A DNA stretch of 64,000 bases from Candidatus Aenigmatarchaeota archaeon (GTDB lineage Archaea > Aenigmatarchaeota > Aenigmatarchaeia > CG10238-14). The notes under the pieces were generated by a model, which saw nothing but the letters and a program-made list of their open reading frames with translations, had not been told where the DNA came from and did not search any database. This document shows positions 42,334 to 63,887 of the stretch, piece after piece. The DNA is taken from assembly GCA_018920365.1 (NCBI GenBank), contig JAHLMM010000001.1, positions 199,628 through 263,627 on the forward strand. The letters are read 5' to 3'. Numbering within the stretch: the first letter of the stretch is position 1; each line of letters opens with the position of its first letter. The position numbers and the translations under genes are program-made.

Positions 42334-43086
42334 ATGAGATTTTTGCTTTTAATACTGCTTTTTATTCCGCTGGTTTATTCTTGGGGTTTTGAAACTCATG
42401 AATGGATTTGCAAACAATTGCTTATTGGGAATCAAGATTTGAGAAAAATTGTTAATGAAAATGATTTTATCAGAGGTTGCAATGCACCTGACACAGAAAT
42501 AAAAGACCAACTTTATCATAACTGCTATTTTGCAAGAGAATGCAAACATATTAACACAGAAATAAAAGACCCTGTTAGCTTGGCATACTTTGCTGATATA
42601 AAAAGTTGCTTTGAAAAAGACTTATATAGCTGTCCTGCATTATTGAAATTTAACGCATCGATCGCTAAAAATGATTCTTATTGGATAGGAGCAAGCGTAC
42701 ATTATTTGTCCGATGCATTTGCACCTGTTCATCAGATAACAGGTGAAGATTATTATAAATGTCACAAACCGTTTGAAGATAAGATTGATAAAAAGCTGAA
42801 AGAAAAAAATTGGATCGTTCGTCAGAATTGTGAGTTTAGCTTTCCATGCTCTAAAGCAGGAAGTATGATAAGAAAGTGTCAAACAAAATATAACTCAACA
42901 ATAGAATTTTCTTATGATAATTTGGTTGAACTAGTCGTTGTTATAGATAAAGAAGTTTCACATAAACTTAAAATTAATGAAGGTAGGTATGAAAGCTTGA
43001 AACAAACAGGAATGATAGCTTTGATTAAAAATAAAATAATAGAAATTTTTAATCATTTTGTAAACAAGTTGCCTTTTTCAAAATAA
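42334..43086 (+). CDS. Secreted zinc-dependent phospholipase C / S1-P1 nuclease superfamily protein.
   Basis: The signal peptide precedes a mature N-terminus WGFETHEW. The N-terminal Trp is a Zn ligand in this superfamily. His/Asp-rich motifs follow (HYLSDAFAPVH). Confidence 0.45.
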   Translation: MRFLLLILLFIPLVYSWGFETHEWICKQLLIGNQDLRKIVNENDFIRGCNAPDTEIKDQLYHNCYFARECKHINTEIKDPVSLAYFADIKSCFEKDLYSCPALLKFNASIAKNDSYWIGASVHYLSDAFAPVHQITGEDYYKCHKPFEDKIDKKLKEKNWIVRQNCEFSFPCSKAGSMIRKCQTKYNSTIEFSYDNLVELVVVIDKEVSHKLKINEGRYESLKQTGMIALIKNKIIEIFNHFVNKLPFSK

Positions 43087-44471
43087 CTTTTCATAAATTC
43101 GGCAAACTCTTTGTTTTTCAAAAACTTTTTCAATTCATTTTGGTCAATTATCTTGAAGCTTTTTGAAAGTTGAGTTGCTATGAAGTTTGGTATTCCCTTT
43201 GCTTTTAAAATTTTTTCATCATCACTCAAAGTGTCAACAAGCTTAACTTTTGCTGATGTCCAACTTCTATTGACTTCAACAACCCAATAATCATCCTCTA
43301 TAAAAGGCCCATTTACTGCATCATTTTTATGTTTTTCAGCAAATCTTTCAGCATTTCTCTCATCAAAAACCCACGGCCCTACTATTTTGTCAATTGTAGG
43401 CAATCTGCTTACTTGCATTTCTAAAATAATTATCGCAGTTTTCTTTTCATCTGTCCAGCAATCGCTTCTTAATACTGCAAACTCATATTCTTTCATTATA
43501 CTTTCTAGTCTTTTTGTCGCTTTCCTTAACTGAGGCCACAATATGTCAGGAACAGTTTTTGGTGGTTCAAACACAACTGCTATGAATTCAGTGCCCCTGG
43601 ATTTAACAAAATTTTCAAATTCATTTGATTTTATGGTTTTAGTTTTTTTGAAAAAGAAATCTTCGTTTGGCTTTAGCAGAAACTCTTGTGATATTTTTTT
43701 GAATTTGTAGAAATTTTCAGGACTTATAGCAGATGCAACGTTTCTATGTTTATCAACAGGATCTATTACTATTAAAATTTCATTTTTGAATTTATTTTTT
43801 AACTGATTGTATTCGCTTTTTTTCCATTGATTTTCTATATCAATTATCTCCTTAACCTTCCAGTCTTTTGTAGCTTTTAACAGATTTAAGAAGCTGCCGT
43901 ATTTTATTATAAGCAGTTCGCATAAATAACCAGAAAAACCATTTGTCTTTGCATCAGCACCATACAAACCATTAGCTTTCAAAAACTGTTTCAATAACCT
44001 GACTTCATTGCTTAGCTGTTTTGGCAGTTTCTCTTCTAGATATTTGACATGAAATTGTGTTCTGTCAACAGCAGAAATTATCTTTTCTCCTTTTTCAATT
44101 TTGTAGCAAGGAACAAGATCAATACTTATTCCGTCTATTTTTCCTCTTATATAAGGGTGCTGGGCATATTCTATTGTCCATTTTCCTTTAAGAGTTTCAA
44201 TCACTTTCTTACCAACAGATAATCCAGTTTCCTCAAGCTGTTTGTTTGATAGTGTTTTAGGGAAAAGGATGAACACATCTATTTCGTTTTTGTTAGGAAG
44301 CCATGTGTCTCTTGTCAACGAGCCAGCAAGTATAACTTCTGCGTTGTACGAAGATGATACAGATTTTGATACTTCTAGCACACGGCTAGATATTAATTTA
44401 ATTTTCCTTTCTTCTTTGTTCGTAGGTGTAATTTTTTTAAGTACATTTTTTAAAAGTTGACTGTTTGTCAT
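43053..44471 (-). CDS. cca: Archaeal class I CCA-adding tRNA nucleotidyltransferase.
   Basis: The text ILAGSLTRDTWLPNKNEIDVFILF contains the Pol-beta NTase GS…D.D motif. The protein is 472 aa, archaeal-type. Confidence 0.85.
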   Translation of the reverse strand: MTNSQLLKNVLKKITPTNKEERKIKLISSRVLEVSKSVSSSYNAEVILAGSLTRDTWLPNKNEIDVFILFPKTLSNKQLEETGLSVGKKVIETLKGKWTIEYAQHPYIRGKIDGISIDLVPCYKIEKGEKIISAVDRTQFHVKYLEEKLPKQLSNEVRLLKQFLKANGLYGADAKTNGFSGYLCELLIIKYGSFLNLLKATKDWKVKEIIDIENQWKKSEYNQLKNKFKNEILIVIDPVDKHRNVASAISPENFYKFKKISQEFLLKPNEDFFFKKTKTIKSNEFENFVKSRGTEFIAVVFEPPKTVPDILWPQLRKATKRLESIMKEYEFAVLRSDCWTDEKKTAIIILEMQVSRLPTIDKIVGPWVFDERNAERFAEKHKNDAVNGPFIEDDYWVVEVNRSWTSAKVKLVDTLSDDEKILKAKGIPNFIATQLSKSFKIIDQNELKKFLKNKEFAEFMKSYFEKGNLFTK

Positions 44472-44535: not shown

Positions 44536-45684
44536 ATGGACTATATAGTTTCAATACCTACAACTAGAGAAAGAAGCTATGAGATTTTAAGATGTTTAAA
44601 ATCTATAGTCGAAGGAAAAACACGTGATTTTCCTATAGTTGTTTTTGGGCAAGCAGATGATCCAACTATAGAAAAAACATGGATAAATGTTTTAGGCAAT
44701 CATAGAATTATATATTTAGGTCCAGAAAATGTAAGAAGATTAATTGATTATACAGGAAGTAAACTTGTATTAGAAAGAAATGATTTAAATGCTTTGTTTA
44801 ATTATAGAACATTTGGCGGAGCCAGAAACTTGTTGACTGCTTTTGCCTTTGTAATATCTAAGAATCCCGGTGTTATAAACATAGACGATGATGAAGAAGT
44901 TTTACCAGGTTTTTTTGAAGAACATATAAAACTTTTGGGTACAAAGACGTCCAAAGGAAAAAAAATAACTCTTGTTACAGGCCCTTATACAAACCATAGC
45001 TCATATGTAGGATTTGATACGTTACTATATATTTTGTCGAGAAAAAGAGGTGAAGGAATTGTTAGAGATGCTTTAAGGGCAATAACATATGCTACAGAAG
45101 AAGCAAGAGGTTATGTATACGGAATTAATGGATGTAGAGGAGGAAATTTATCCAGATGTGATTCAGCTTTGAGAATACCGTATATTTCTTCACCTGAAGA
45201 TATCAACTTGAGAGGTGAAGATGAAATTCACGCAGATTTAAATCAAATAATGAACCCAGGATGTATAAATTTGTATACACCTAATGCAAAAGTTAAACAT
45301 ACAAAAAGACCTGGATATTTATTGGAAAACATAAAAGGCGAACTGATAGGAATAATAGTTCATGAAGTTATAAGACATTTGGAGCTTGATCATCAAATTA
45401 GAGAAAATTATATTAACCTTGTTGATTTGTATTCTAGAAAAGTTCTCGAACAAAAAAGGCGACAACTAAAGCAAAAAAGATTTAATTACTCACCTGATAT
45501 TGAAAGAGAGTTATCTATAATAGTTTCATCTGTTTATGCGTTATTGAGTGATGTTGCTTTTTTCAAAAGACAAGCAACACTGTATATTAATAATTTGATT
45601 TATGGATTTAATCATTGGGAAAAGATATTAGATTGTTTGAGTAATTCTTCAGAAGAAGCGAAAAGATATATATTAACACATTAA
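44536..45684 (+). CDS. Hypothetical protein, possibly a GT-A-like glycosyltransferase.
   Basis: N-terminus YIVSIPTTRER resembles a GT2 start. The text NIDDDEEV is a possible DxD motif. The evidence is weak. Confidence 0.3.
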   Translation: MDYIVSIPTTRERSYEILRCLKSIVEGKTRDFPIVVFGQADDPTIEKTWINVLGNHRIIYLGPENVRRLIDYTGSKLVLERNDLNALFNYRTFGGARNLLTAFAFVISKNPGVINIDDDEEVLPGFFEEHIKLLGTKTSKGKKITLVTGPYTNHSSYVGFDTLLYILSRKRGEGIVRDALRAITYATEEARGYVYGINGCRGGNLSRCDSALRIPYISSPEDINLRGEDEIHADLNQIMNPGCINLYTPNAKVKHTKRPGYLLENIKGELIGIIVHEVIRHLELDHQIRENYINLVDLYSRKVLEQKRRQLKQKRFNYSPDIERELSIIVSSVYALLSDVAFFKRQATLYINNLIYGFNHWEKILDCLSNSSEEAKRYILTH

Positions 45685-47255
45685 ATTTTCTTGCTCATAT
45701 AAGGTCCTTCATGCATATAACCATATTTCATAAACCATTGCTTTACACCAATACCAGCTATTGCTATCATCTTTTTCTTATCAAATTCCTCTCTTGATAT
45801 TCTTTCAGCTTCTTTAAGCAACAAAGAACCAAAACCTTTATGCTGCCAACCACTTTGATCTTGAACATTTATAGGAACAAGCTTGCCGTAAGTATGAACT
45901 TCCCTTATCAAGGCGGTTTTATCATCTATTTCCTTTCTATGAGGCTTGTACGGCATCCGTAATCTCAGCAAAGCAATCAAAACATCATTTTTTGTGTCTT
46001 CAAACGACAAGAATATCTCTTTCCCATTAGACGCATCATAATCTCTTCTTACAAGCTCTACTTCTTTCTCATCAATATCAATTCCATATATTTTTTTGGC
46101 ATGTCCCGGCTCTCTGCATCTTGTGCACCTGCATCTTTTACCTTGCCTTTTCAATTCCTGTATTGCAATTTCTCTTAAATTGCTCTTTTTTGGTCCGGCA
46201 ACAATCTCATTTGCAGGTATGTCTCTAAAAACTCTTCTAAATCTTACCCAAGGAGGAGCCATTTTCTTCATTTCCACTATAAGCTTTAATGTTTCTTCAA
46301 GTGTAGGCGGCTTATAATCGCCTCTTTTCCATTCTTGATAGAGCTCTGTCCCAGGTATTACAACACACGGATATATCTTGAATTCATCCACTTGCAAGTC
46401 AGGGTTTGTGAAAATCTGCCTAAACATCCCAACATCTCTTTCAAAATTTGATCCAGGCAAAAAAGGCATGACATGAGCTATTATTTTGAAGCTAGCGTCT
46501 TTTGCTATCTGTATAGACTTTATGGTTTCTTCAACATGATGATCTCTTTTGACTCTATCAAGGACATCATTATATATTGATTGTATGCCTATCTCAGCTC
46601 TTGTGCAACCAAAATCAAGCAAACTGTCAACATGCTTTTCCATGCAATAATCTGGCCTTGTTTCTATTGTCAAACCAACACATCTGTGTTTTGCCGTTTC
46701 ATTTAATTTTTTGGCTTGCTCTAGTGTCTTTGATCTTCGACCATTCAAACCATCATAAATTCCTTTAATGAAGCGATATTGATAGTCTCTATCTAATGCT
46801 AGCAGCGTTCCGCCTATGACTATTATCTCTATCTTATCAGTAGGGTGACCCATTATTTTGTATTGATTTAACCTGTCTCTTACTTGCTTGTAAGGATCAT
46901 ATCTATTTCTTATAGCCCTCTGAATAGCAGGTTCATTGGCAGAATAGCTTTTCGGCACTAGCTTGCTTAAAGGAGGGCAATAAGTGCATCTGCCGCCACA
47001 ATAACCAGGTTTGCAAGAAACTGTTATAGTGGCTACGCCAGAAATTGTTCTGGTCGGCTTTATTCCCATTATTTTGCTAAATTGTTCCAGCTGCTTTTTT
47101 GTAGCATATTTCAATATATCTGGGTTAGTAGGCGACTCTTTTAGTCCATACTTTATGCATAACTCCTTTTTCAGCTTGTCTACATCATCTTTACTGTTTA
47201 TAGACCGGTTTTTCAATTCTTTCAGAAATAGCTTTGCAAAATCCTTTTCAAGCAT
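45681..47255 (-). CDS. elp3: Elp3 homolog (radical-SAM plus GNAT; tRNA wobble-uridine carboxymethylation).
   Basis: Radical-SAM Cys cluster (CGGRCTYCP). The C-terminal GNAT region is HKGFGSLLLKEAE. The protein is 524 aa. Confidence 0.85.
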   Translation of the reverse strand: MLEKDFAKLFLKELKNRSINSKDDVDKLKKELCIKYGLKESPTNPDILKYATKKQLEQFSKIMGIKPTRTISGVATITVSCKPGYCGGRCTYCPPLSKLVPKSYSANEPAIQRAIRNRYDPYKQVRDRLNQYKIMGHPTDKIEIIVIGGTLLALDRDYQYRFIKGIYDGLNGRRSKTLEQAKKLNETAKHRCVGLTIETRPDYCMEKHVDSLLDFGCTRAEIGIQSIYNDVLDRVKRDHHVEETIKSIQIAKDASFKIIAHVMPFLPGSNFERDVGMFRQIFTNPDLQVDEFKIYPCVVIPGTELYQEWKRGDYKPPTLEETLKLIVEMKKMAPPWVRFRRVFRDIPANEIVAGPKKSNLREIAIQELKRQGKRCRCTRCREPGHAKKIYGIDIDEKEVELVRRDYDASNGKEIFLSFEDTKNDVLIALLRLRMPYKPHRKEIDDKTALIREVHTYGKLVPINVQDQSGWQHKGFGSLLLKEAERISREEFDKKKMIAIAGIGVKQWFMKYGYMHEGPYMSKKI

Positions 47256-47365
47256 AACAGATTTATGTGTAATTTATATTTTTTAATAGTTATATTAAAT
47301 TATTTCTATTGTATAGTAGTAACATTTATATATAAGTGTCACTATAAAGTAATATAGTGATTTGA

Positions 47366-47536
47366 ATGAATAAGCAAGATTTACTAAGGCTAAGATTTTA
47401 CAGAGAAGAGTTGTTTAATGCTAAGAGTCAATTGTTCAAGGCTAAAAATGTCAGGCAAGTGAAATACTTGCAGGACAGGATAAACTTTTTGCAGGAAAGA
47501 ATAGCTGAAATTGAAAACAGCTTCAAAAAGGGATGA
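47366..47536 (+). CDS. Small coiled-coil ORF (56 aa). A 32-aa ORF (47533–47630) follows with an ATGA overlap.
   Basis: MNKQDLLRLRFYREELFNAKSQLFKAKNVRQVKYLQDRINFLQERIAEIENSFKKG. It is below the ORF-track cutoff. It lies in an otherwise unassigned 330-bp gap. Confidence 0.25.
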   Translation: MNKQDLLRLRFYREELFNAKSQLFKAKNVRQVKYLQDRINFLQERIAEIENSFKKG

Positions 47537-47585
47537 GCATGAAGCTGAAAATGGTTGACTATAGAATAAACGCTGATTTAAACAA

Positions 47586-48563
47586 TCAAGATTTATCACG
47601 ACTTTTGAAAGATTTGTATGATGAGTTGTAGACATATTTTTCTATTGTCTTGCACGTCCTACATATTTTTTCAGAGCTAGGCTCTTCACATCTCTCGCAA
47701 ACATTTATTTCTTTGCCAGCAAAATCGTGTTTTATTGAAGAAGCTATTTTCTCGCCACTTTTTACTATAGAATATTTTATGCCAGGAGATCTATCTTCAA
47801 GTTTGTTGAGAAAATCTCTTGTCTCCATCCGTAGTGCATTAAAATTTGCATAAGGACATTCATCAAAATAAGCAGGTATACCATTGATCATTGCATAGAG
47901 AGCAGATTCTTTCTCAGGTATCATAAGCAATGGTTTTATCCTTGGTATGAATTTTTTGTGATCAACAACTTTCGGAACACCGCCAAACCTTGCAAGCCTT
48001 AGCAGATCACCTTTCATAACATTCATCAATATGCTTTGGGCTTCGTCATCTAGATTATGTCCAACAGCTATTTTGTTTGCATTCAATTCTCTTGCTTTTT
48101 GATTTAACAAATATCTTCTGAATATACCGCATGGTCCGCACATGCTACCTTCTTTTAGCTCTTTAGCTATTTTATCAATAGTTGTGTGCAAACTTTGCTG
48201 GAAAGAAACTATATGATGCTCGACACCTAAATGCTTGCAAAAATCTATGCACCCTTTCAAAGTTTTATCTCTATATCCTTTAATCCCTTCATCTATTGTT
48301 ATGGCCACTATTTCTATTTTAGGATTTTTTTCGAATATTTTCTTCAAAATGTAAAGAGTGTTTGATGAATCTTTACCGCCTGACAACCCAACAGCGATTT
48401 TATCACCATCTTCAATCATTTTAAATCTTCTTATAGTCGTTTTTACCCTGTTTTCAATATTTTTGCTAAAACATCTTTTGCAATAATACCGACCTTCGTT
48501 TATTCTAAAATAAATTGCTTGATTGCTACAAGAAGAGCATTTCTTCATTTCTTCACCTTGCAT
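47586..48563 (-). CDS. ncsA: tRNA thiolation protein (TtcA/NcsA PP-loop ATPase family with Zn fingers).
   Basis: N-terminal CxxC…CxxC. PP-loop SGGKDS. A central Cys cluster (GPCGIFRR). C-terminal CxxC pairs. Confidence 0.8.
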   Translation of the reverse strand: MQGEEMKKCSSCSNQAIYFRINEGRYYCKRCFSKNIENRVKTTIRRFKMIEDGDKIAVGLSGGKDSSNTLYILKKIFEKNPKIEIVAITIDEGIKGYRDKTLKGCIDFCKHLGVEHHIVSFQQSLHTTIDKIAKELKEGSMCGPCGIFRRYLLNQKARELNANKIAVGHNLDDEAQSILMNVMKGDLLRLARFGGVPKVVDHKKFIPRIKPLLMIPEKESALYAMINGIPAYFDECPYANFNALRMETRDFLNKLEDRSPGIKYSIVKSGEKIASSIKHDFAGKEINVCERCEEPSSEKICRTCKTIEKYVYNSSYKSFKSRDKS

Positions 48564-49180
48564 ATAGCAATAATATTTTTCTTTGGTTCCTTTGTGATTT
48601 TAATGCTTTCAATTTCAAGATCAGCAGCTTGAATATCTTTTTCCAGCTCGCGTTTTGTATACAAGTGATAATATCTTTTCAACCTATTCCCTCCTTTTCT
48701 CCATTCAACATAAACATCGCCAAAGCTAAAAATGTTTTTTAATAAATTTTTTACATGAATTAGCTGCCATCTATACCAAACAGACAAAAATATTTTTTTT
48801 CTAGCTATTCTTTTCATCTCTTTCAACGCTTTTATTCTGTCATCATTAACCAAATGATGAAGTGTAGCAGCACAAAATATAAAATCAAATGTTTTATCTT
48901 TTAAAGGAAGTGCTTTTGCATCTGCTATTATTAGATCAATGTCAACATTATTTTTTCCTATCATTTTCCTTGCTTGTTTTATCATATTTTTAGAAAAATC
49001 CACGCCAACACATCTATAACCTTTTTTTGCTATCGGTATTAAATTTCTACAATTACCACAGCCAATATCGATAGTGCTACCTTTGAAAATTCCAAAAGGT
49101 ATATATAAAGCTGGTTTTGCTCTAAAATTTGACCATGATTCTGCAATTTCATCATATGTTTGCCTTAAGCTTTTCATCAT
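48545..49180 (-). CDS. Class I SAM-dependent methyltransferase.
   Basis: Motif I is IDIGCGNCRN. Post-I is VGVDFS. Motif II is FIFCAATLHH. Confidence 0.75.
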   Translation of the reverse strand: MMKSLRQTYDEIAESWSNFRAKPALYIPFGIFKGSTIDIGCGNCRNLIPIAKKGYRCVGVDFSKNMIKQARKMIGKNNVDIDLIIADAKALPLKDKTFDFIFCAATLHHLVNDDRIKALKEMKRIARKKIFLSVWYRWQLIHVKNLLKNIFSFGDVYVEWRKGGNRLKRYYHLYTKRELEKDIQAADLEIESIKITKEPKKNIIAICKVKK

Positions 49181-49205
49181 TAGAAATATAGTATAAATGC
49201 TTAAA

Positions 49206-49296
49206 TAGCCCCGAGCGGATTCGAACCGCTGTCAACGGGTCCAAAGCCCGCTATCCTTGGCCATTGTCCTGGTTAAACCATCTAGACGACGGGGCT
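49206..49296 (-). tRNA. tRNA-Gln (anticodon TTG) with a ~17-nt insertion in the D-loop, a putative non-canonical intron.
   Basis: Minus-strand sequence AGCCCCG-TC-GTCT-[AGATGG TTTAACCAGGACAATGG CCAA]-GGAT-A-GCGGG-CTTTGGA-CCCGT-TGAC-AGCGG-TTCGAAT-CCGCT-CGGGGCT-A. It has the A1-U72 pair and discriminator A typical of archaeal tRNA-Gln. The total is 91 nt. Confidence 0.7.
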
Positions 49297-49340: not shown

Positions 49341-49658
49341 TTAAGTTCTCTTTACCGTATCCTTTTTCTTTACAATCTGCTTTTCAATTTCATTAAGAAC
49401 TTTTTCAACAGCATCGAGCACCTTCCAGTCGCTGTGATCAGCATAAAATAATCCATGAGTCGTTTCAAGATAGCATTTTATTTGATAATATTTATGATCG
49501 CCTCTTTCTCTGATTTTATCTGCACTTAACTTGAATATTTTGACTGATTTTTCTCCAAACATTTTCTTATATTTTTCAAGTAATTTTTCAGACTTTTCTC
49601 TTATCATATCTTTTATCTCCAAAGTAAGATTGTCAAATCCGGATAATTGCACGTTCAT
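49341..49658 (-). CDS. hpf: Ribosome hibernation-promoting factor / RaiA (YfiA) family protein.
   Basis: The text MNVQLSGFDNLTLEIKDMIREKSEKLLEKYKKMF…IKCYLETTHGLFYADHSDWKVLDAVEKVLNEIEKQIVKKKD aligns in length (~100 aa) and pattern with bacterial HPF. The shared features are NxxITG, a lysine-rich helix 1, and the conserved AID…L…Q..K.K helix. Confidence 0.7.
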   Translation of the reverse strand: MNVQLSGFDNLTLEIKDMIREKSEKLLEKYKKMFGEKSVKIFKLSADKIRERGDHKYYQIKCYLETTHGLFYADHSDWKVLDAVEKVLNEIEKQIVKKKDTVKRT

Positions 49659-49740
49659 AAATGATTATTAAATATCCTAGTTTAAAAATCTTGTCAATTA
49701 AAAATTTTAACTAGTAATTTAATCTTTAATGAGATGAATT

Positions 49741-50184
49741 ATGCTTTACAGCAATATAGATTGGAACGGCGTTTTTGTCAAAGTAACAGGAACAATATTT
49801 GTCCTACTCCCAGTTTTTATTTCAATATTTGTATATTTATGGACACCAAAGTATAGTATATATTCTTTATTCGGATTTTTAACAGAAATTTCTTTGATTG
49901 CAGGAATTATTGCAAATGAAGAAGATACACAAATGCACTCTTTAATGACAATTTTTGGATTACTAGTATCATTAATTGAAGCTAGTATTTTCAGCGTAAA
50001 TTTTGGTTTTGAGAATGGAATTGTAAGTTTTCTAATATATTGGTGGGTATGGCTTTCACTGTACTCTGCTGGAATTGAAATATCGTTGAAAACAATTGAA
50101 TTCTCCAAACTTTTCAGTTCGCTTATAATAGCAGTAGGTAGCATTGCCACATTATCATGGTATTGGTTTTCTTTCTTTTTCTAA
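49741..50184 (+). CDS. Small polytopic membrane protein.
   Basis: There are four hydrophobic helices. No known motif was recognised. Confidence 0.35.
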   Translation: MLYSNIDWNGVFVKVTGTIFVLLPVFISIFVYLWTPKYSIYSLFGFLTEISLIAGIIANEEDTQMHSLMTIFGLLVSLIEASIFSVNFGFENGIVSFLIYWWVWLSLYSAGIEISLKTIEFSKLFSSLIIAVGSIATLSWYWFSFFF

Positions 50185-50265: not shown

Positions 50266-50595
50266 GTGAATGTAAAACAGTTAACTATTTCTAGCTTTAA
50301 TGATCTTGAAAAAATAAAAGGAAATGAAAGGGTAATACACTTGAGAAAATTTGTAAGTAAAAATATTCTAAAAATTATATGTTCAAAATGCAAGTATTTG
50401 GATTATGTTTCTATACCTGAAAAAATTTATTTTAAGAGTATAAACTCTGTGAAAAATTCTGATGTAAAAATAGTTGTTGTTAAAAGAAATTCAGGCCGCC
50501 CAAATTTAGTAGAAAAATTAATCCAAGAAAAGAATATGGCTTTTAGTATGAAATTTAAATCTATTGATATAAAAAATAAAGAGGTGTTTGTGTGA
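50266..50595 (+). CDS. Hypothetical protein (109 aa) immediately upstream of thrS.
   Basis: The ORF ends 4 nt into thrS. There is one CxxC pair (CSKCKY). No family was recognised. Confidence 0.3.
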   Translation: MNVKQLTISSFNDLEKIKGNERVIHLRKFVSKNILKIICSKCKYLDYVSIPEKIYFKSINSVKNSDVKIVVVKRNSGRPNLVEKLIQEKNMAFSMKFKSIDIKNKEVFV

Positions 50596-57304: not shown

Positions 57305-57427
57305 ATATTATTGACCCCCTGTAGCTCAACGGTAGAGCATTCGGCTGTAGGCATTTGCATATGCATTTGCCACCGGCATTTGCTCGCAGAAACCGAAGGG
57401 TTGCTGGTTCAAATCCGGCCGGGGGGA
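57305..57427 (+). tRNA. tRNA-Tyr (anticodon GTA) with a 51-nt intron at the canonical 37/38 position.
   Basis: The C1–G72 pair is the archaeal/eukaryal Tyr identity element. D-arm GCTC-AACGGTA-GAGC. Anticodon stem TTCGG/CCGAA with loop CTGTAG-[intron 57341–57391]-A. T-arm GCTGG-TTCAAAT-CCGGC. Discriminator A. Confidence 0.8.
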
Positions 57428-57504: not shown

Positions 57505-57630
57505 ATAATCACATGGTTGGCGACCAAAACGAAAAGGAAACACCCGTTCCCATTTCGAACACGGAAGTTAAGCTTTTCGGTGATTTGAGTTGTACTGCAT
57601 TCGTGCGGGAAGCTCAAGACGTTGCCAACC
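57505..57630 (+). rRNA. rrf: 5S ribosomal RNA (unlinked, standalone).
   Basis: The text GGTTGGCGACC…CACCCGTTCCCATTTCGAACACGGAAGTTAAGC…GTACTGCATTCGTGCGGGAAGC…GTTGCCAACC has the conserved archaeal 5S loop-C / helix III-IV sequence. The 5' and 3' ends are complementary (helix I). Confidence 0.85.
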
Positions 57631-57723
57631 AATTACGCTTAAACGGTGACCTATTATTGATTAAAAGAGCCCACCCCCAAAATATAAATTTTATAAAGTT
57701 CTTAAATAAAAAATCAGTTATTT

Positions 57724-57827
57724 GCTCTGGTGGTGTAGCTCGGCCTAATCATATAGAGACCAATCATACGGGACTGTCATCATATGGCAGAACTCCCGTG
57801 ACCCGGGTTCAAATCCCGGCCAGAGCG
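57724..57827 (+). tRNA. tRNA-Asp (anticodon GTC) with a 13-nt canonical-position intron and an additional ~16-nt insertion in the D-arm region.
   Basis: Acceptor GCTCTGG/CCAGAGC with discriminator G. T-arm CCGGG-TTCAAAT-CCCGG. Anticodon stem CGGGA/TCCCG with loop CTGTCA-[TCATATGGCAGAA]-C. The D region is ~19 nt too long. It contains a duplicated CC(T)AATCATA segment. The total is 104 nt. Confidence 0.7.
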
Positions 57828-57845
57828 TATACAAAAGGTGATTAA

Positions 57846-58094
57846 TTGAAAGACGAAATGAAAATAGATGTTTTATCTCATGAATTGGTACCAAAGCATT
57901 ACATTGTTTCTGAAGAGGAAAAACAAAAAATAAAAGAGAAATACAAAATAGACAAAGACAACAAATTTCCACAAATAAAAGCAAAGGATCCTGTTGTAAA
58001 AGCAATAGGCGCAAAACCCGGTGATATAATAAAAATAGTGAGAAAAAGCAATGTAGCAAAAGAAATTGTCTATTATAGAATTGTTGTGGAGTGA
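57846..58094 (+). CDS. rpoH: DNA-directed RNA polymerase subunit H (Rpb5 homolog).
   Basis: The text HELVPKHYIVSEEEK…KDPVVKAIGAKPGDIIKIVRKSNVAKEIVYYRIVV is the RpoH/Rpb5 C-terminal domain signature. It is the first gene of the rpoH-B-A operon. Confidence 0.85.
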   Translation: MKDEMKIDVLSHELVPKHYIVSEEEKQKIKEKYKIDKDNKFPQIKAKDPVVKAIGAKPGDIIKIVRKSNVAKEIVYYRIVVE

Positions 58095-58098
58095 TATT

Positions 58099-59610
58099 AT
58101 GAATGAATATATGACTTTGTTAAAATCGTTTGCACGCGACGAAGGTCTGATTAGATTTCAGATAGAATCCTACAATGACTTTATAGAAAACAGAATACCA
58201 AACATCATAAAACAAATAAAAGAAATTAAACCAGAAGTTCCTGACTTGGGAGAGTTTAGAATTAAATTAGGTAAGTTCAAAGTGGGAAAACCATTAGGTA
58301 CAGATATATGGGGTCCTTGGACGAAAGAGGCAGACGGTTCAGAAAGACCAATATTGCCTCAAGAATCGAGAATAAGAAATCTAACATATTCTGCTCCAAT
58401 GTATCTTGAAATGACACCAAACTTGAATGGTATAGATAGCGAAACAATTACAGTTAATTTTGGTGATTTGCCTGTCATGCTCAAATCAAAAATATGTCCA
58501 TTGTCGAAAATGGATAGGCAAGAGTTAATCAGAGTTGGAGAAGATCCAGATGATCCAGGAGGTTATTTTATTGTAAATGGTACAGAAAGAGTACTAGTTT
58601 TGATTGAAGAAATATCACCAAATAAAATTCTAGTCGAGTCACCAAGCACACCAAATGTAACAAACATAGCTAGAATACATTCAGAAAGAGATGGTTATAT
58701 TCAAAGACATATAATTGAAAGGAGAAACGATGGCATTATTAGAATAAATTTTGCAAATGTCAACAAAATGCCTATAGTAATTTTACTAAGGGCACTCGGA
58801 TTAGAGACAGATAAAGATATAATAACATTTTTGTCAGATGATCCAGAAGTGCAACAAGAGTTTTATCCAAATTTATTCGAGACGCAATCAGCAACATCAA
58901 AAGAAGCAATAGAAGAAATAGCAGATTTTCTAAAAATAACACAAAAAGAATATAGACAAGACAAAGTCAACAAGTTATTGGATAAATATTTGCTTCCTCA
59001 TTTAGGTCAAGATAAAAAATATAGAATAAACAAAGCATTGTATTTGGCAAAGGCAACAGAAAAAATAATTAAAAATCATCTAAAGAAAGTACCAAAGGAT
59101 GACATTGACCATTATTCGAACAAAAGATTGAAATTGTCAGGAGATTTATTGGAAATATTATTTAGATCTGTGCTGCTTGGTAAATGGGGATTGATAACTA
59201 GAATAACTTACAATTATCAAAAATTAACAAAAAGAGGAAGATTTCCACCCCTGCAATCAATAGTTGAATCAAATGTCTTGACAAATCAAATAATTTCAGC
59301 CATAGCAATAGGCTCATGGGTTGGCGGAAGGACAGGCGTTTCTCAGAGACTTGAAAGAGGAAGCTTTGTTAAAACAGTTTCTCATACAAGAAATGTATTA
59401 TCGCCGTTAACATCAACTCAAGAACACTTTGAAGCAAGAGTTTTGCATCCAACTCAATGGGGAAAAATAGATCCATCACAAACACCAGAAGGTGCAACAA
59501 TTGGGTTAAGAAAATATCTAGCTATAATGGGTCAAATAACAAAGGGTGCAACTGAAAAAGAAGTGAAAATCTTGGAAGATATTTTGTTAAAAGAGGTTGA
59601 TAAAAAATGA
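58099..59610 (+). CDS. rpoB2: DNA-directed RNA polymerase subunit B'' (N-terminal half of split subunit B).
   Basis: Begins MNEYMTLLKSFARDEGLIRFQIESYNDFIE…. It contains protrusion/lobe domain sequences. The stop overlaps the next start (ATGA). The ORF-track start at 58066 overlaps the rpoH stop. The ATG at 58099 is the more likely start. Confidence 0.85.
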   Translation: MNEYMTLLKSFARDEGLIRFQIESYNDFIENRIPNIIKQIKEIKPEVPDLGEFRIKLGKFKVGKPLGTDIWGPWTKEADGSERPILPQESRIRNLTYSAPMYLEMTPNLNGIDSETITVNFGDLPVMLKSKICPLSKMDRQELIRVGEDPDDPGGYFIVNGTERVLVLIEEISPNKILVESPSTPNVTNIARIHSERDGYIQRHIIERRNDGIIRINFANVNKMPIVILLRALGLETDKDIITFLSDDPEVQQEFYPNLFETQSATSKEAIEEIADFLKITQKEYRQDKVNKLLDKYLLPHLGQDKKYRINKALYLAKATEKIIKNHLKKVPKDDIDHYSNKRLKLSGDLLEILFRSVLLGKWGLITRITYNYQKLTKRGRFPPLQSIVESNVLTNQIISAIAIGSWVGGRTGVSQRLERGSFVKTVSHTRNVLSPLTSTQEHFEARVLHPTQWGKIDPSQTPEGATIGLRKYLAIMGQITKGATEKEVKILEDILLKEVDKK

Positions 59611-62600
59611 CTGATGTGTTTTTTGATGGAAAATATTTTGGAAGTGTTAAGGACCCGGTAAAATTAGTTAATTCAATAAGGGAAAAGAGAAGAAAAGGTC
59701 AATTGTCAGATCAGATTAATGCATCATATCTTGAACACTTTGATATAGTAATGATATCTACAGATTCTGGTAGAGCAAGAAGACCATTAATAGTAGTCGA
59801 AAACGGAAAACCAAAATTGACAAAAGAACATTTAAACATGCTTGAGAGTGGAAAGATAAAATGGAGTGATTTGATTTCTCAAGGTATAATAGAATATTTG
59901 GATGCAACTGAAGAAGAAAATGCATTGATTGCTTTAAAACCAGAAGATTTAACACAAAAACACACACATTTGGAATTAGATCCCACAATAATAATGGGTG
60001 TTGCTACATCTCTTGTTCCATTTGCAGAATTTAACAGAGGAGACAGAGTAAATTTTGGCGCAAAAATGATAGGCCAAGCGATAGGTATGTATTCAATAAA
60101 CTTTCCTGTTAGAGTTGACACAAAATCAAATATAATGATATATCCTCAAGTGCCTATTGTAAAGACACACATGAATGATATAATAAATGATCAAGATCAT
60201 CCTGGCGGTCACAATGTAGTTATTGCAATGATGCCGTTTTTGGGTTATAACATGGAGGATGCTGTTGTCATAAACAAATCATCCATTGAAAGAGGGTTGT
60301 TTTGGTCATACATGTTCAGATCATATGAAGCCGAGGAAAAAAGATATTTGGGTGGTCAAGAGGATATAATAGGAATACCTGAACCTGGAATAAGAGGTTA
60401 TGCTGGTGAAGATGCGTATAAACATTTACCAGAAGATGGTATAGTAAATCCTGAAACAAAACTCAAAAAAGAGGATGTTATAATAGGCAAATCATCACCG
60501 CTGAGATTCTTGGGTAGTTTAGATCAATTCACAACAGGCTTGGAAAATATAAGAGAAACTTCTGTTAGACTAAAACATGGAACAGAAGGTATAGTTGATA
60601 GAGTTTTTATTACAGAAAGTTTTGAAGGAAATAAACTTGTAAAAGTTGTTGTGAGAGATTTGAAAATACCTGAATTAGGAGATAAATTTGCCAGCAGACA
60701 TGGACAAAAAGGCGTTTTAGGTTTAATAATAAATCAGGAAGAATTACCATTCACAGAAGATGGTATTACACCTGACATAATTTTTAATCCTCATGGCATA
60801 CCATCTAGAATGACAATAGGGCAGATTTTAGAAATATTATCAAGCAAGGTAGGTGCTTTGACTGGTAAAAGGATAACAAGTTCTGCATTCCATCCTTTTG
60901 ATGAAAAGACAATAAGAGAAACTTTGAAAAAATATGGGTTTGATGATGATGGAAAAGAGTTTATGTATGACAGCAGAAATGGCCAAAAATTGATAAATAA
61001 AATCCTAATAGGAGAGATATATTATCAGAAACTAGATCATCTTGTTTCAAACAAAATGTATTCAAGATCAAAAGGTCCTGTGACACTTTTGACAAAACAA
61101 CCAACAGAAGGAAAATCAAAAATGGGTGGTTTGAGACTAGGTGAAATGGAAAAAGACTGTTTAATTGCACACGGTGCTTCGTTGCTTTTGAAGGAAAGAT
61201 TTGATTCAGATAAGATAATGATATCAATATGCAAAGATTGTGGTATAGAAGCTATAAATGATAGGGTTAAAAATAAAAAATTCTGCCCAATGTGTGGTGG
61301 TTCAAAGACTGTTGATATTGACATGTCATATGCTTTCAAACTTTTACTAGACGAGCTAAAAAGCATGGCAATATATCCAAAAATAATTGTTGATGAGGAT
61401 TTGGGAATTATTGATAAAATGGTGTTTGGTATATTAACACCTGAAATGATAAAGAAAATATCAGCATCAAAAATAAGTAAAACAGAATTGTATGATCAAG
61501 AAGGCTATCCTGTTGAAGGAGGCTTGATGGATCCAAGACTTGGCGTTATAGATCCTGGATTGAGATGCAGAACATGCGGTGGAACAGTTGGTGATTGCAA
61601 AGGTCATTTCGGATACCTTGAATTGACAAAACCAGTGATACATGTAAATTACGCAAAGCTAATTTACAATATTTTAAGGTTCACATGCAGAAAATGCAAC
61701 AAGGTTTTGATAAGTCCTGATGATGTTGCAAAGTTCAAAGAAGGCAAAAAGTCAATGAAGAGACTAAAGACATTCATAAAATCAACATGCCCATATTGCA
61801 AAGAAAAACAGGGTAAGATAAAATACATCAAACCTACTACATATCAGGAAGATTCTGAAATATTGACAGCAGTGCAAGTAAGAGAAAGATTGGAAAAAAT
61901 ACCTGATAGCGAGCTAGAATATTTTGGTCTTAGAAAAATGAGGCCTGAAAATTTGGTTTTAACACTACTTCCAGTTCCACCAGTAACTGTGAGACCTTCT
62001 ATAACTTTGGAAACAGGTGAAAGATCAGAAGATGATTTGACACACAAGCTTGTAGATATTGTTAGAATAAACAAAAGATTGAGGGAAAATATAGAGTTGG
62101 GTGCACCTGATTTTATAATACAAGATTTATGGGAGCTTTTACAATATCACGTTGCAACTTATATGAATAATGAAATAACGGGCGTACCACCAGCTAGACA
62201 TAGATCAGGAAGAGTTTTGAAGACATTGGCACAAAGATTAAAGACAAAAGAAGGAAGATTTAGAAGCAATTTGATTGGTAAGAGAGTTAACTTTTCTGCA
62301 AGAACAGTTGTTAGCCCAGATCCATTTTTAGATATAAATGAGGTAGGCGTACCATTATCAGTTGCAACAGAATTGACCTTACCAGTTGTTGTAAATGAAA
62401 AGAATATTGAAAAGATAAGGCAGATGATAGAGAGATATCCAGAATGGCCAACAATAAATTATGTAAATAGACCAGATGGAAGAAGAAAGAAAGTCACAGA
62501 ATTGAACAAAGCTGATATAGCAAAAGAAATAGAACCTGGTTATATTGTTGAAAAACAGATAGAGAATGGCGATTGGGCAGTTTTCAATAGACAGCCATCA

Positions 62601-63887
62601 TTACACAGGATGAGCATGATGGGCCATAAGGTAAGAGTAATGCCTTATAATACATTTAGACTGAATTTATCGGTTGCACCGCCTTATAATGCAGATTTTG
62701 ATGGAGATGAGATGAACCTTCACATACCTCAAACAAAAGAGGCTCAAGTTGAAACAAAAATGCTTACAGAAGTTTCGACACAATTTAGAAGCCCAAGATT
62801 TAGTAGTGTTATAATAGGTGCAATAAATGATCATATAACAGGCTTGTACATACTGACAACAAAAATGAAGTTTTCAAGAAAAGATACAGTCTCTATTGTA
62901 AAGGCATGTGATCCAGAAATTCAAGTTCCTGACAAAAAAGAATTTACAGGAAAGGAAATATTCAGCTTATTCTTGCCAAAAGATTTTGATTTTGAATATT
63001 CAAAAGGAGATTTGAAAGTTGTGATAGAAAACGGTCAACTAGTAGAAGGAATAATCGATGAAAACGGTTTGGGTGCATTTAAAGGAAAACTGCTTGATGA
63101 AATTGAGAGAAGATATGGTGGTGAATTTACAAGGAAGTTGCTCTTTAACATGACAAAACTTTCTCTTGAAGTGTTGATGAGATATGGCTTTACTACTTCA
63201 ATATCTGATTATGACATTGATGAGAAGATAGTAAAACAAATAAATGATTTGCTTGAAAATGCAAAGAAAGAGATAAATGACATGATAAAAGATTTCAAAA
63301 AAGGCAAGATAAAAGAAATAGTAGGAAGAACAAAGAGAGAGACATTTGAAACATTGGTTAAAATAAAATTGGCTGATTTGCTAAATCAGATAACAACACT
63401 TGTCGCAAAGAACATAAAAGAGAATTCAATTTACATAATGGCTAAAAGTGGTGCTAGAGGCAGTCTAGTTAACATGGTTCAGTGCATTGCATGCCTTGGT
63501 CAAGAAACAATTAGAGGTGAAAGAATAAGGATAGGTTATTATAAAAGAACTTTGCCTCATTTTGAAAAAGGTGATATGAGTTTAGAATCAAGAGGTTTTG
63601 TTAGACACGGCTATAAAAATGGTTTGACACCGTTTGAATTTTTCTTTGATGCAATGAACAGTAGAGAAGGTCTTATGGATAAATCTTTAAAGACAAGACA
63701 TAGTGGTTATCTTGAAAGAAGATTGATAGGTGCATTAAAAGATTTGAAAGTAGAGTACGATGGTACTGTAAGAGATGCTTCAAAGAAAATTGTTCAGTTT
63801 ATTGCTGCTGAAGATGGTTTAGACCCATCGAGAATACAAAAAGGTGGTATAGATGTCGGAAAAATCGCTGAAAGATTATTTGGATGA
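59607..63887 (+). CDS. rpoB1-rpoA1: In-frame fusion of RNA polymerase subunit B' (residues 1–604) and subunit A' (from M605). It encodes a single 1426-aa polypeptide.
   Basis: The B' portion ends …MSYAFKLLLDELKSMAIYPKIIVDEDLGIIDK. The frame runs directly into MVFGILTPEMIKK…GGLMDPRLGVIDPGLRCRTCGG…GHFGYLELTKPVIHV, the canonical A' N-terminus with its Zn-binding motif. No stop codon lies between them. The A' catalytic NADFDGDEM motif is present. The ORF ends …AERLFG-TGA. Confidence 0.85.
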   Translation: MTDVFFDGKYFGSVKDPVKLVNSIREKRRKGQLSDQINASYLEHFDIVMISTDSGRARRPLIVVENGKPKLTKEHLNMLESGKIKWSDLISQGIIEYLDATEEENALIALKPEDLTQKHTHLELDPTIIMGVATSLVPFAEFNRGDRVNFGAKMIGQAIGMYSINFPVRVDTKSNIMIYPQVPIVKTHMNDIINDQDHPGGHNVVIAMMPFLGYNMEDAVVINKSSIERGLFWSYMFRSYEAEEKRYLGGQEDIIGIPEPGIRGYAGEDAYKHLPEDGIVNPETKLKKEDVIIGKSSPLRFLGSLDQFTTGLENIRETSVRLKHGTEGIVDRVFITESFEGNKLVKVVVRDLKIPELGDKFASRHGQKGVLGLIINQEELPFTEDGITPDIIFNPHGIPSRMTIGQILEILSSKVGALTGKRITSSAFHPFDEKTIRETLKKYGFDDDGKEFMYDSRNGQKLINKILIGEIYYQKLDHLVSNKMYSRSKGPVTLLTKQPTEGKSKMGGLRLGEMEKDCLIAHGASLLLKERFDSDKIMISICKDCGIEAINDRVKNKKFCPMCGGSKTVDIDMSYAFKLLLDELKSMAIYPKIIVDEDLGIIDKMVFGILTPEMIKKISASKISKTELYDQEGYPVEGGLMDPRLGVIDPGLRCRTCGGTVGDCKGHFGYLELTKPVIHVNYAKLIYNILRFTCRKCNKVLISPDDVAKFKEGKKSMKRLKTFIKSTCPYCKEKQGKIKYIKPTTYQEDSEILTAVQVRERLEKIPDSELEYFGLRKMRPENLVLTLLPVPPVTVRPSITLETGERSEDDLTHKLVDIVRINKRLRENIELGAPDFIIQDLWELLQYHVATYMNNEITGVPPARHRSGRVLKTLAQRLKTKEGRFRSNLIGKRVNFSARTVVSPDPFLDINEVGVPLSVATELTLPVVVNEKNIEKIRQMIERYPEWPTINYVNRPDGRRKKVTELNKADIAKEIEPGYIVEKQIENGDWAVFNRQPSLHRMSMMGHKVRVMPYNTFRLNLSVAPPYNADFDGDEMNLHIPQTKEAQVETKMLTEVSTQFRSPRFSSVIIGAINDHITGLYILTTKMKFSRKDTVSIVKACDPEIQVPDKKEFTGKEIFSLFLPKDFDFEYSKGDLKVVIENGQLVEGIIDENGLGAFKGKLLDEIERRYGGEFTRKLLFNMTKLSLEVLMRYGFTTSISDYDIDEKIVKQINDLLENAKKEINDMIKDFKKGKIKEIVGRTKRETFETLVKIKLADLLNQITTLVAKNIKENSIYIMAKSGARGSLVNMVQCIACLGQETIRGERIRIGYYKRTLPHFEKGDMSLESRGFVRHGYKNGLTPFEFFFDAMNSREGLMDKSLKTRHSGYLERRLIGALKDLKVEYDGTVRDASKKIVQFIAAEDGLDPSRIQKGGIDVGKIAERLFG

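Follow-up and report, generated by a model that had tools for sequence, protein, structure and literature searches.

A 105-residue protein of Candidatus Aenigmatarchaeota is a stand-alone HPF/RaiA-domain protein of the archaeal lineage and a probable silencer of idle ribosomes

The window analysed here is a stretch of 64,000 nucleotides of Candidatus Aenigmatarchaeota DNA that encodes a 105-aa protein on the minus strand at positions 49341..49658. This protein is best explained as a stand-alone HPF/RaiA-domain protein of the archaeal lineage, which is vertically inherited and probably silences idle ribosomes at the 30S decoding centre. The gene is a genuine member of an already-described kind and is correctly named in public annotation, where an identical protein from a MAG labelled Candidatus Aenigmatarchaeota carries the NCBI name "HPF/RaiA family ribosome-associated protein". 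A sequence-only reading of the window had recognized the HPF/RaiA-family ORF and had described its sequence correctly, and PF02482, AF2 and Foldseek confirm that assignment. The same reading had called the protein bacterial-type, and this label is not supported by the comparisons described below.

The gene and its upstream region

The ORF runs from ATG to TAA at exactly 49341..49658 and has no longer in-frame extension. Its product, MNVQLSGFDNLTLEIKDMIREKSEKLLEKYKKMFGEKSVKIFKLSADKIRERGDHKYYQIKCYLETTHGLFYADHSDWKVLDAVEKVLNEIEKQIVKKKDTVKRT, runs MNVQLSGFDN...AVEKVLNEIEKQIVKKKDTVKRT and is basic, with a pI of 9.2 and 23 K+R residues. The CDS is assigned to a stand-alone HPF/RaiA-like protein from the ORF itself, PF02482, AF2, Foldseek, dN/dS, and the NCBI name. 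The GC content of the gene (30.5%) is close to that of the window (31.0%), and the composition profile of the window is flat.

The HPF gene diverges from a gene for a 147-aa protein (49741..50184, plus strand), and the two share an intergenic region of 82 bp at 49659..49740, an arrangement that is also found in the orthologous loci L001-L004 and L006. These 82 bp are all that separates the HPF gene from its upstream neighbour, and they are too short to hold a degraded remnant of a CBS module. The intergenic region features a putative archaeal TATA-box-like element, TTTTTAAA, on the minus strand at 49681..49688, which is preceded by a purine-rich stretch. The element is conserved and A/T-rich, is located 23-30 nt upstream of the HPF ATG, and is found at equal distance in 6 aligned orthologous upstream regions as TTTTTAAAC, TTTATATTC or TTAATATTC. 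No Shine-Dalgarno sequence is found at the normal distance upstream of the ATG. The spacing of the conserved element, together with the missing Shine-Dalgarno sequence, suggests that the HPF gene is transcribed from a promoter of its own and that its mRNA is leaderless or nearly so.

Orthologues, selection and synteny

Public collections contain 11 orthologous proteins of 103-118 aa with 53-100% identity, and all of those with organism labels belong to Aenigmatarchaeota. The 11 sequences share 35 invariant columns. Pairwise dN/dS values against the orthologues are 0.04-0.09 wherever dS is unsaturated, which indicates strong purifying selection, and dS is saturated between some of the orthologues across Aenigmatarchaeota. 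A scan of genome contigs with the family profile (A1) found three Aenigmatarchaeota species representatives, within the bounds set by its search patterns, and a word-indexed search with a broader profile of 37 domain sequences (A4) added only a few Aenigmarchaeota proteins.

The gene is part of a conserved block that consists of DNA ligase, TrmB, ThrRS, in most cases a DUF1699-like gene, the 147-aa gene, HPF, tRNA-Gln, a SAM methyltransferase, an NcsA-like enzyme, a 56-aa ORF, Elp3, and the CCA-adding enzyme. This block recurs in five other related Aenigmatarchaeota assemblies with a protein identity of 61-68%, and synteny at the HPF locus is conserved in L001-L004, L006, and L009-L011, which bears out the conservation in related archaeal genomes that the sequence-only reading had proposed as a check. 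L001 is an exception in two respects, as it has no called DUF1699-like gene and as HPF and the tRNA are separated there by an additional gene of 376 aa. The neighbours are archaeal and include ThrRS with an archaea-specific editing domain, an archaeal CCA-adding enzyme, Elp3, TrmB, and an ATP-dependent DNA ligase. Contig chimerism was considered and rejected on the basis of the uniform composition and of synteny across independent assemblies. A tblastn search of plasmid and phage collections gave no match for the HPF gene. Because of the syntenic block, the native GC content, the flat composition, and the absence of plasmid or phage matches, chimerism, an island location, and recent mobility are excluded as far as the tools used allow, and the archaeal, non-island setting described earlier from the sequence holds. 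The HPF gene is probably vertically inherited within a subclade of Aenigmatarchaeota (DPANN).

Family membership and fold

The protein matches PF02482 (Ribosomal_S30AE) over residues 13-102, which align with positions 8-87 of the 88 in the profile, with 25.8 bits and an E-value of 1.8e-5. This score is a borderline pass, as the gathering score is 23.7, but it answers the HMM search that had been suggested from the sequence. E. coli HPF (from NC_000913) scores 98.6 bits on the same profile. TIGR00741 (HPF/YfiA) aligns with the 105-aa protein from end to end with 32.8 bits, which misses the equivalog cut-off of 40.9. The AF2 model, which was built on the 11 orthologues, has a pLDDT of 85.8 and a pTM of 0.76, and predicts the topology beta1 (residues 4-6), alpha1 (13-34), beta2 (39-52), beta3 (55-66), beta4 (69-77), and alpha2 (80-104). 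The 34 best Foldseek matches of this model in the PDB are all HPF/RaiA/YfiA/pY proteins, including plastid PSRP1, with TM-scores of 0.6-0.8 and E-values down to 2.4e-5, whereas the matches to dsRBDs are weak and more distant (E about 0.02, TM 0.42-0.49). Profile A4 finds P. abyssi HibA (4e-10), L. innocua HPF (8uu4_w, 1.3e-6), and E. coli HPF (7.2e-6) in the PDB. The PF02482 match, the TIGR00741 alignment, the AF2 fold, the Foldseek matches, and the A4 profile matches establish that the 105-aa protein is a member of the HPF/RaiA superfamily.

The C-terminal helix features the motif A-V/A-x-x-V/L-x-x-L/I-E/A-R/K-Q-x-x-K-K-D/E-K, which is common to this protein and to ribosome-bound HPFs; the helix reads AVEKVLNEIEKQIVKKKD in the window protein and AAIDGLIDKLARQLTKHKD in E. 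coli HPF. The protein stops at residue 105, directly after alpha2, and the C-terminal dimerisation domain of long HPFs is absent.

Affinity to archaeal HPF domains

The nearest solved structure by sequence is chain H of 9SR9 (9sr9_H), in which residues 284-374, with 291-373 as a narrower span, are matched. This chain is Pyrococcus abyssi HibA, a protein of 392 aa in which four CBS domains precede an HPF/RaiA domain at the C-terminus (PMC13324472). The E-value of the match is 0.0069 with the single sequence (phmmer), 5.6e-5 with profile A1, and 4e-10 with profile A4. A phmmer search of the PDB with the 105-aa protein alone found only HibA and no bacterial HPF at E<=10, and profiles were required before PDB searches with this family reached bacterial HPFs. 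The best bacterial PDB chain with profile A1 has an E-value of 0.11, compared with 5.6e-5 for 9sr9_H. The same order is given by hhalign, in which the family aligns with the HibA domain at 92% (E 6.4e-7) with a single one-residue gap, whereas the alignment with E. coli HPF (59%, E 9.3e-5) includes a 7-residue deletion in the beta2-beta3 hairpin.

A multiple alignment reveals that the beta2-beta3 hairpin is ~7 residues longer than that of E. coli HPF in the window family, in the CBS-fused proteins, and in HibA. Additionally, a few extra residues after beta1 are common to these three and are missing in E. coli HPF. The longer hairpin and the extra residues are consistent with the two archaeal-specific insertions that are mentioned for HibA. 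The 105-aa protein has the archaeal-type HPF domain that forms the C-terminus of HibA, AHA, and Hib. Judged by these sequence comparisons, it belongs to the archaeal branch of the HPF family, and its low PF02482 score relative to E. coli HPF, the missed TIGR00741 cut-off, and the closer HibA domain do not support the label bacterial-type.

Distant relatives and the CBS module

When 1.84 billion representatives were searched exhaustively by HMMER, the family profile recovered 62 proteins at E<=1e-3. Close short relatives account for about 17 of these, and the rest are further short proteins and 24 longer ones of 291-387 aa, in which the HPF match is located at the C-terminus as in the HibA/AHA layout. 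A Pfam scan found PF02482 in 32 of the 62 and CBS in 25; these were the only two Pfam families among them, and the long-HPF C-domain was not found. About 24 of the 62 are CBS-HPF fusions, and the nearest outgroups therefore have the HibA/AHA layout and not a bacterial one.

A split or separate CBS partner within the 64-kb window was considered and rejected. An HMM of the 24 HibA-type CBS modules found nothing among the window's 326 ORFs (stop-to-stop ORFs of at least 50 aa in six frames), the best match having an E-value of 0.017 and 8.8 bits. Since it is without a CBS module, the 105-aa protein is not a HibA/AHA protein and is assigned to the stand-alone class.

A rough NJ tree (Kimura distance, 60 bootstrap replicates) places the window protein in a cluster of 21 domains, 20 of which are short, apart from the main cluster of CBS-fused proteins. 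Bootstrap values on the path to the window protein are 0-25% at the deep nodes and reach a maximum of 42% at the immediate 3-member clade. The one long member that groups with the short forms is P0030, a CBS-fused protein of 366 aa that has their FGxxxI(K) loop, and its sequence and position fit domain loss or gain inside the subfamily. With deep-node support of 0-25%, the tree is compatible both with CBS loss and with an ancestral short form.

Neighbouring genes and other features of the window

The tRNA-Gln(UUG) gene that had been reported next to the HPF gene is present at 49206..49296 on the minus strand, 44 nt downstream of the HPF stop codon and on the same strand. Its D-loop contains a 17-nt insert, ATGGTTTAACCAGGACA, at about 49265..49281, with boundaries that are ambiguous by 4 nt, which is a non-canonical intron position. 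ARAGORN misses this tRNA with or without the intron option, and removal of the insert gives a clean tRNA-Gln of 74 nt. The hairpin of the insert covaries in relatives (TGGTTTAACCA, TGGCTCAAGCCA, TAGCTTAAAGCTA). L003 and L004 feature a different insert that is located earlier, after about position 10, and these differences in sequence and position suggest intron turnover or sliding.

A set of genes for tRNA wobble-uridine modification flanks HPF on one side at 45681..49296 on the minus strand. It consists of Elp3 (TIGR01211, 655 bits), an NcsA-like 2-thiolation PP-loop enzyme (257 bits, which is under the equivalog cut-off), and a class-I SAM methyltransferase, with tRNA-Gln(UUG) beside them, and the gene order is kept in relatives. 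The tRNA-Gln(UUG) is likely to be a substrate of the adjoining enzymes. The gene for the CCA-adding enzyme is located near this set at 43053..44471.

Four ORFs on the plus strand have no Pfam or NCBIfam match, namely those of 382 aa (44536..45684), 56 aa (47366..47536), 147 aa (the divergent neighbour of HPF), and 109 aa (50266..50595), the last of which has orthologues with a weak DUF1699_N match. ORFs of matching size and position are found in most of the related assemblies examined.

Further along the plus strand, a single ORF of 1426 aa at 59607..63887 encodes a fusion of the RNA polymerase subunits B' (Rpb2 domains 4-7, aa 1-594) and A' (Rpb1 domains 1-5, aa 602-1421), and the B'' subunit is encoded just upstream by a separate ORF of 514 aa at 58066..59610. 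The NCBI gene call on the same contig agrees with the fusion. A B'-A' fusion is unusual for archaea, and a literature search on it returned nothing relevant. A lone 5S rRNA gene is located at 57516..57630 (plus strand), and no 16S or 23S rRNA is found in the window. About 90 nt upstream of the 5S gene, at 57315..57427 (plus strand), a tRNA match of 113 nt and 55 bits is found that is missed by ARAGORN and presumably contains an intron. The ORF at 57513..57845, which overlaps the 5S gene, is probably spurious.

Alternative explanations

The sequence-only reading started from the view that HPF proteins occur essentially in bacteria or plastids and that archaeal hibernation is attributed to other factors, a view that has been overtaken by recent work on archaeal HPF proteins (PMC13324472; PMC12934967), and it considered that the gene was acquired from bacteria. 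A recent horizontal gain of a bacterial short HPF/RaiA by this archaeon would agree with the fact that the HPF fold and its Pfam family were first defined in bacteria, and Madru et al. favour an early transfer from bacteria to archaea for the whole archaeal HPF domain (PMC13324472). However, the protein is far closer to HibA, whose longer hairpin it shares, than to bacterial HPFs, and none of the 62 relatives has the long-HPF architecture. Synteny is kept, dS is saturated between Aenigmatarchaeota orthologues, and the composition is native, all of which speaks against a young arrival. It is additionally argued in the AHA preprint that the HPFs of Archaea and of Bacteria belong to separate clades of ancient origin, which are domain-specific and show no intermixing (PMC12934967). 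Because HibA is closer, and because stand-alone archaeal HPFs and separate clades have been published, acquisition from bacteria as a recent, lineage-specific event is unsupported, and we regard it as most improbable. A transfer in the distant past, close to the root of the Archaea, is one of the hypotheses in the literature.

The short form could also be an ancestral archaeal HPF that was never fused, predating HibA and retained in DPANN, instead of a derivative of HibA that lost its CBS domains; the mechanism would be the same. The separate NJ cluster of mostly short domains points in this direction, as does the lack of a CBS remnant upstream of the gene. The low support at the deep nodes of that tree and the grouping of CBS-fused P0030 with the short proteins, whose loop it shares, count against it, and stand-alone archaeal proteins generally fall within HibA clades, as would be expected if the CBS module had been lost repeatedly (PMC13324472). 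We consider a never-fused origin unlikely. It is very improbable that the protein is an HPF-fold RNA-binding protein re-purposed for, e.g., a tRNA role tied to the U34-modification genes and tRNA-Gln(UUG). Such a role is suggested by the position of the HPF gene 44-60 nt upstream of the tRNA on the same strand (except in L001, where the 376-aa gene intervenes), by the neighbouring Elp3, NcsA-like, and SAM methyltransferase genes, and by the resemblance of the HPF fold to dsRBDs in the weak Foldseek matches. The TM-scores of the dsRBDs are nevertheless well below those of the HPFs, the C-terminal helix motif is shared with ribosome-bound HPFs, and the HPF gene and the tRNA each appear to have their own promoter-like element. 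Small DPANN genomes are dense in translation genes, and gene neighbourhood is therefore weak evidence for a tRNA role. The preferred reading is still that of a stand-alone archaeal-lineage HPF that acts on idle ribosomes.

Proposed mechanism and significance

Cryo-EM structures place the archaeal HPF domain in the same 30S pocket as bacterial HPF, where it contacts h44, h28, h24, h23, uS12, uS7, and uS11 (PMC13324472; PMC12934967). [quoted passage not shown] By analogy with these complexes, we infer ribosome binding, its site, and its role for the 105-aa protein. The basic domain would occupy the decoding centre of the small subunit (30S) of idle ribosomes, and the bound protein would overlap the mRNA path and the positions of the A- and P-site tRNA anticodons, as in the complexes of bacterial HPF/RaiA and archaeal HibA/AHA. 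Occupation of the decoding centre would keep idle ribosomes silent and, under starvation, protect them against nucleases. This mechanism assumes that the bare HPF domain keeps its affinity for the archaeal 30S subunit. In HibA, many additional ribosome contacts are made by the CBS module. Because this module is missing, sensing of adenylate charge by a CBS tetrad of its own and occupation of the PTC, uL5, and L1-stalk sites are ruled out for the 105-aa protein. Dimerisation of the 100S type by way of the long-HPF C-domain would not be expected either, and control would be left to the expression level or to some partner. The analysis covered 64 kb of the genome, and further hibernation factors or a separate CBS partner may be encoded outside it.

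A more far-reaching proposal is that the protein is a retained, never-fused archaeal HPF and/or the only hibernation factor that a reduced DPANN symbiont possesses, controlled by expression and operating with no sensing of energy charge. We consider this proposal quite unlikely. If true, archaea would have a hibernation system reduced to its minimum, and the origin of HibA/AHA could be calibrated against it, with respect to inheritance from LUCA versus early transfer.

The presence of a 'bacterial' HPF in an archaeon is thus real but has already been explained, since HPF domains are widespread in Archaea, where they are mostly fused to CBS domains (HibA/AHA) and are sometimes stand-alone, especially in DPANN. 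The Aenigmatarchaeota family, which is syntenic and well conserved, offers a clean and minimal candidate with which to study the biochemistry of a CBS-less archaeal HPF, and it serves the question of how much of the ribosome binding and protection by HibA resides in the HPF domain alone.

Comparison with known systems

The bacterial short HPF (YhbH) and RaiA/YfiA/pY proteins share 15-20% identity with the 105-aa protein, which differs from them in the hairpin that is ~7 residues longer. The E. coli HPF has a pI of 6.5, compared with 9.2 for the archaeal protein, and gammaproteobacterial HPF works with RMF to form 100S dimers. The bacterial long HPF features an N-terminal domain that is homologous to the 105-aa protein, as seen in the profile A4 match to L. 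innocua HPF, and a C-terminal dimerisation domain that the 105-aa protein does not have; 100S formation by that mechanism is thus not available to it.

HibA (Pyrococcus abyssi PAB0961; PDB 9SR9-9SRF, 9T7H), AHA (Haloferax volcanii HVO_2384), and Hib share with the 105-aa protein the long beta2-beta3 hairpin and the basic C-terminal helix, and HibA/AHA presumably share with it the 30S site in the A/P/mRNA channel. HibA/AHA proteins differ in their size of 360-400 aa and in their N-terminal module of four CBS domains, which binds adenylates and extends to the PTC, uL5, or the L1 stalk, and the identity between the 105-aa protein and the HibA domain is only about 21%. HibA is present in 47% of 4026 archaeal genomes (Madru et al., Nat Commun 2026, PMC13324472). 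The genome list of that study features 115 Aenigmatarchaeota entries, including GCA_018920345 of the order CG10238-14 (PMC13324472), and in our analysis this assembly carries the syntenic HPF orthologue L002.

Stand-alone HPFs are reported in 8% of archaea, "mostly DPANN and Nitrososphaerales" (PMC13324472; PMC12934967), and the AHA preprint counts 926 HPF-only proteins in 814 archaeal species from 12 phyla (PMC12934967). It has been proposed that these proteins 'may' contribute to hibernation 'by analogy with Bacteria' (PMC13324472; PMC12934967). Mutual exclusion with HibA and with the stand-alone CBS modules CM-1/2/4/5 within one genome is a further criterion for this class (PMC13324472; PMC12934967), and no CBS module is encoded in the 64-kb window. 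The class is named 'HPF/RaiA-like' in one study (PMC13324472) and 'HPF-only / canonical HPF homologs' in the other (PMC12934967). The Aenigmatarchaeota subfamily is not individually discussed there, and the 105-aa protein shows no substantive difference from the class, with which it shares a single HPF domain of ~100 aa, the lack of CBS domains, and an archaeal, DPANN host.
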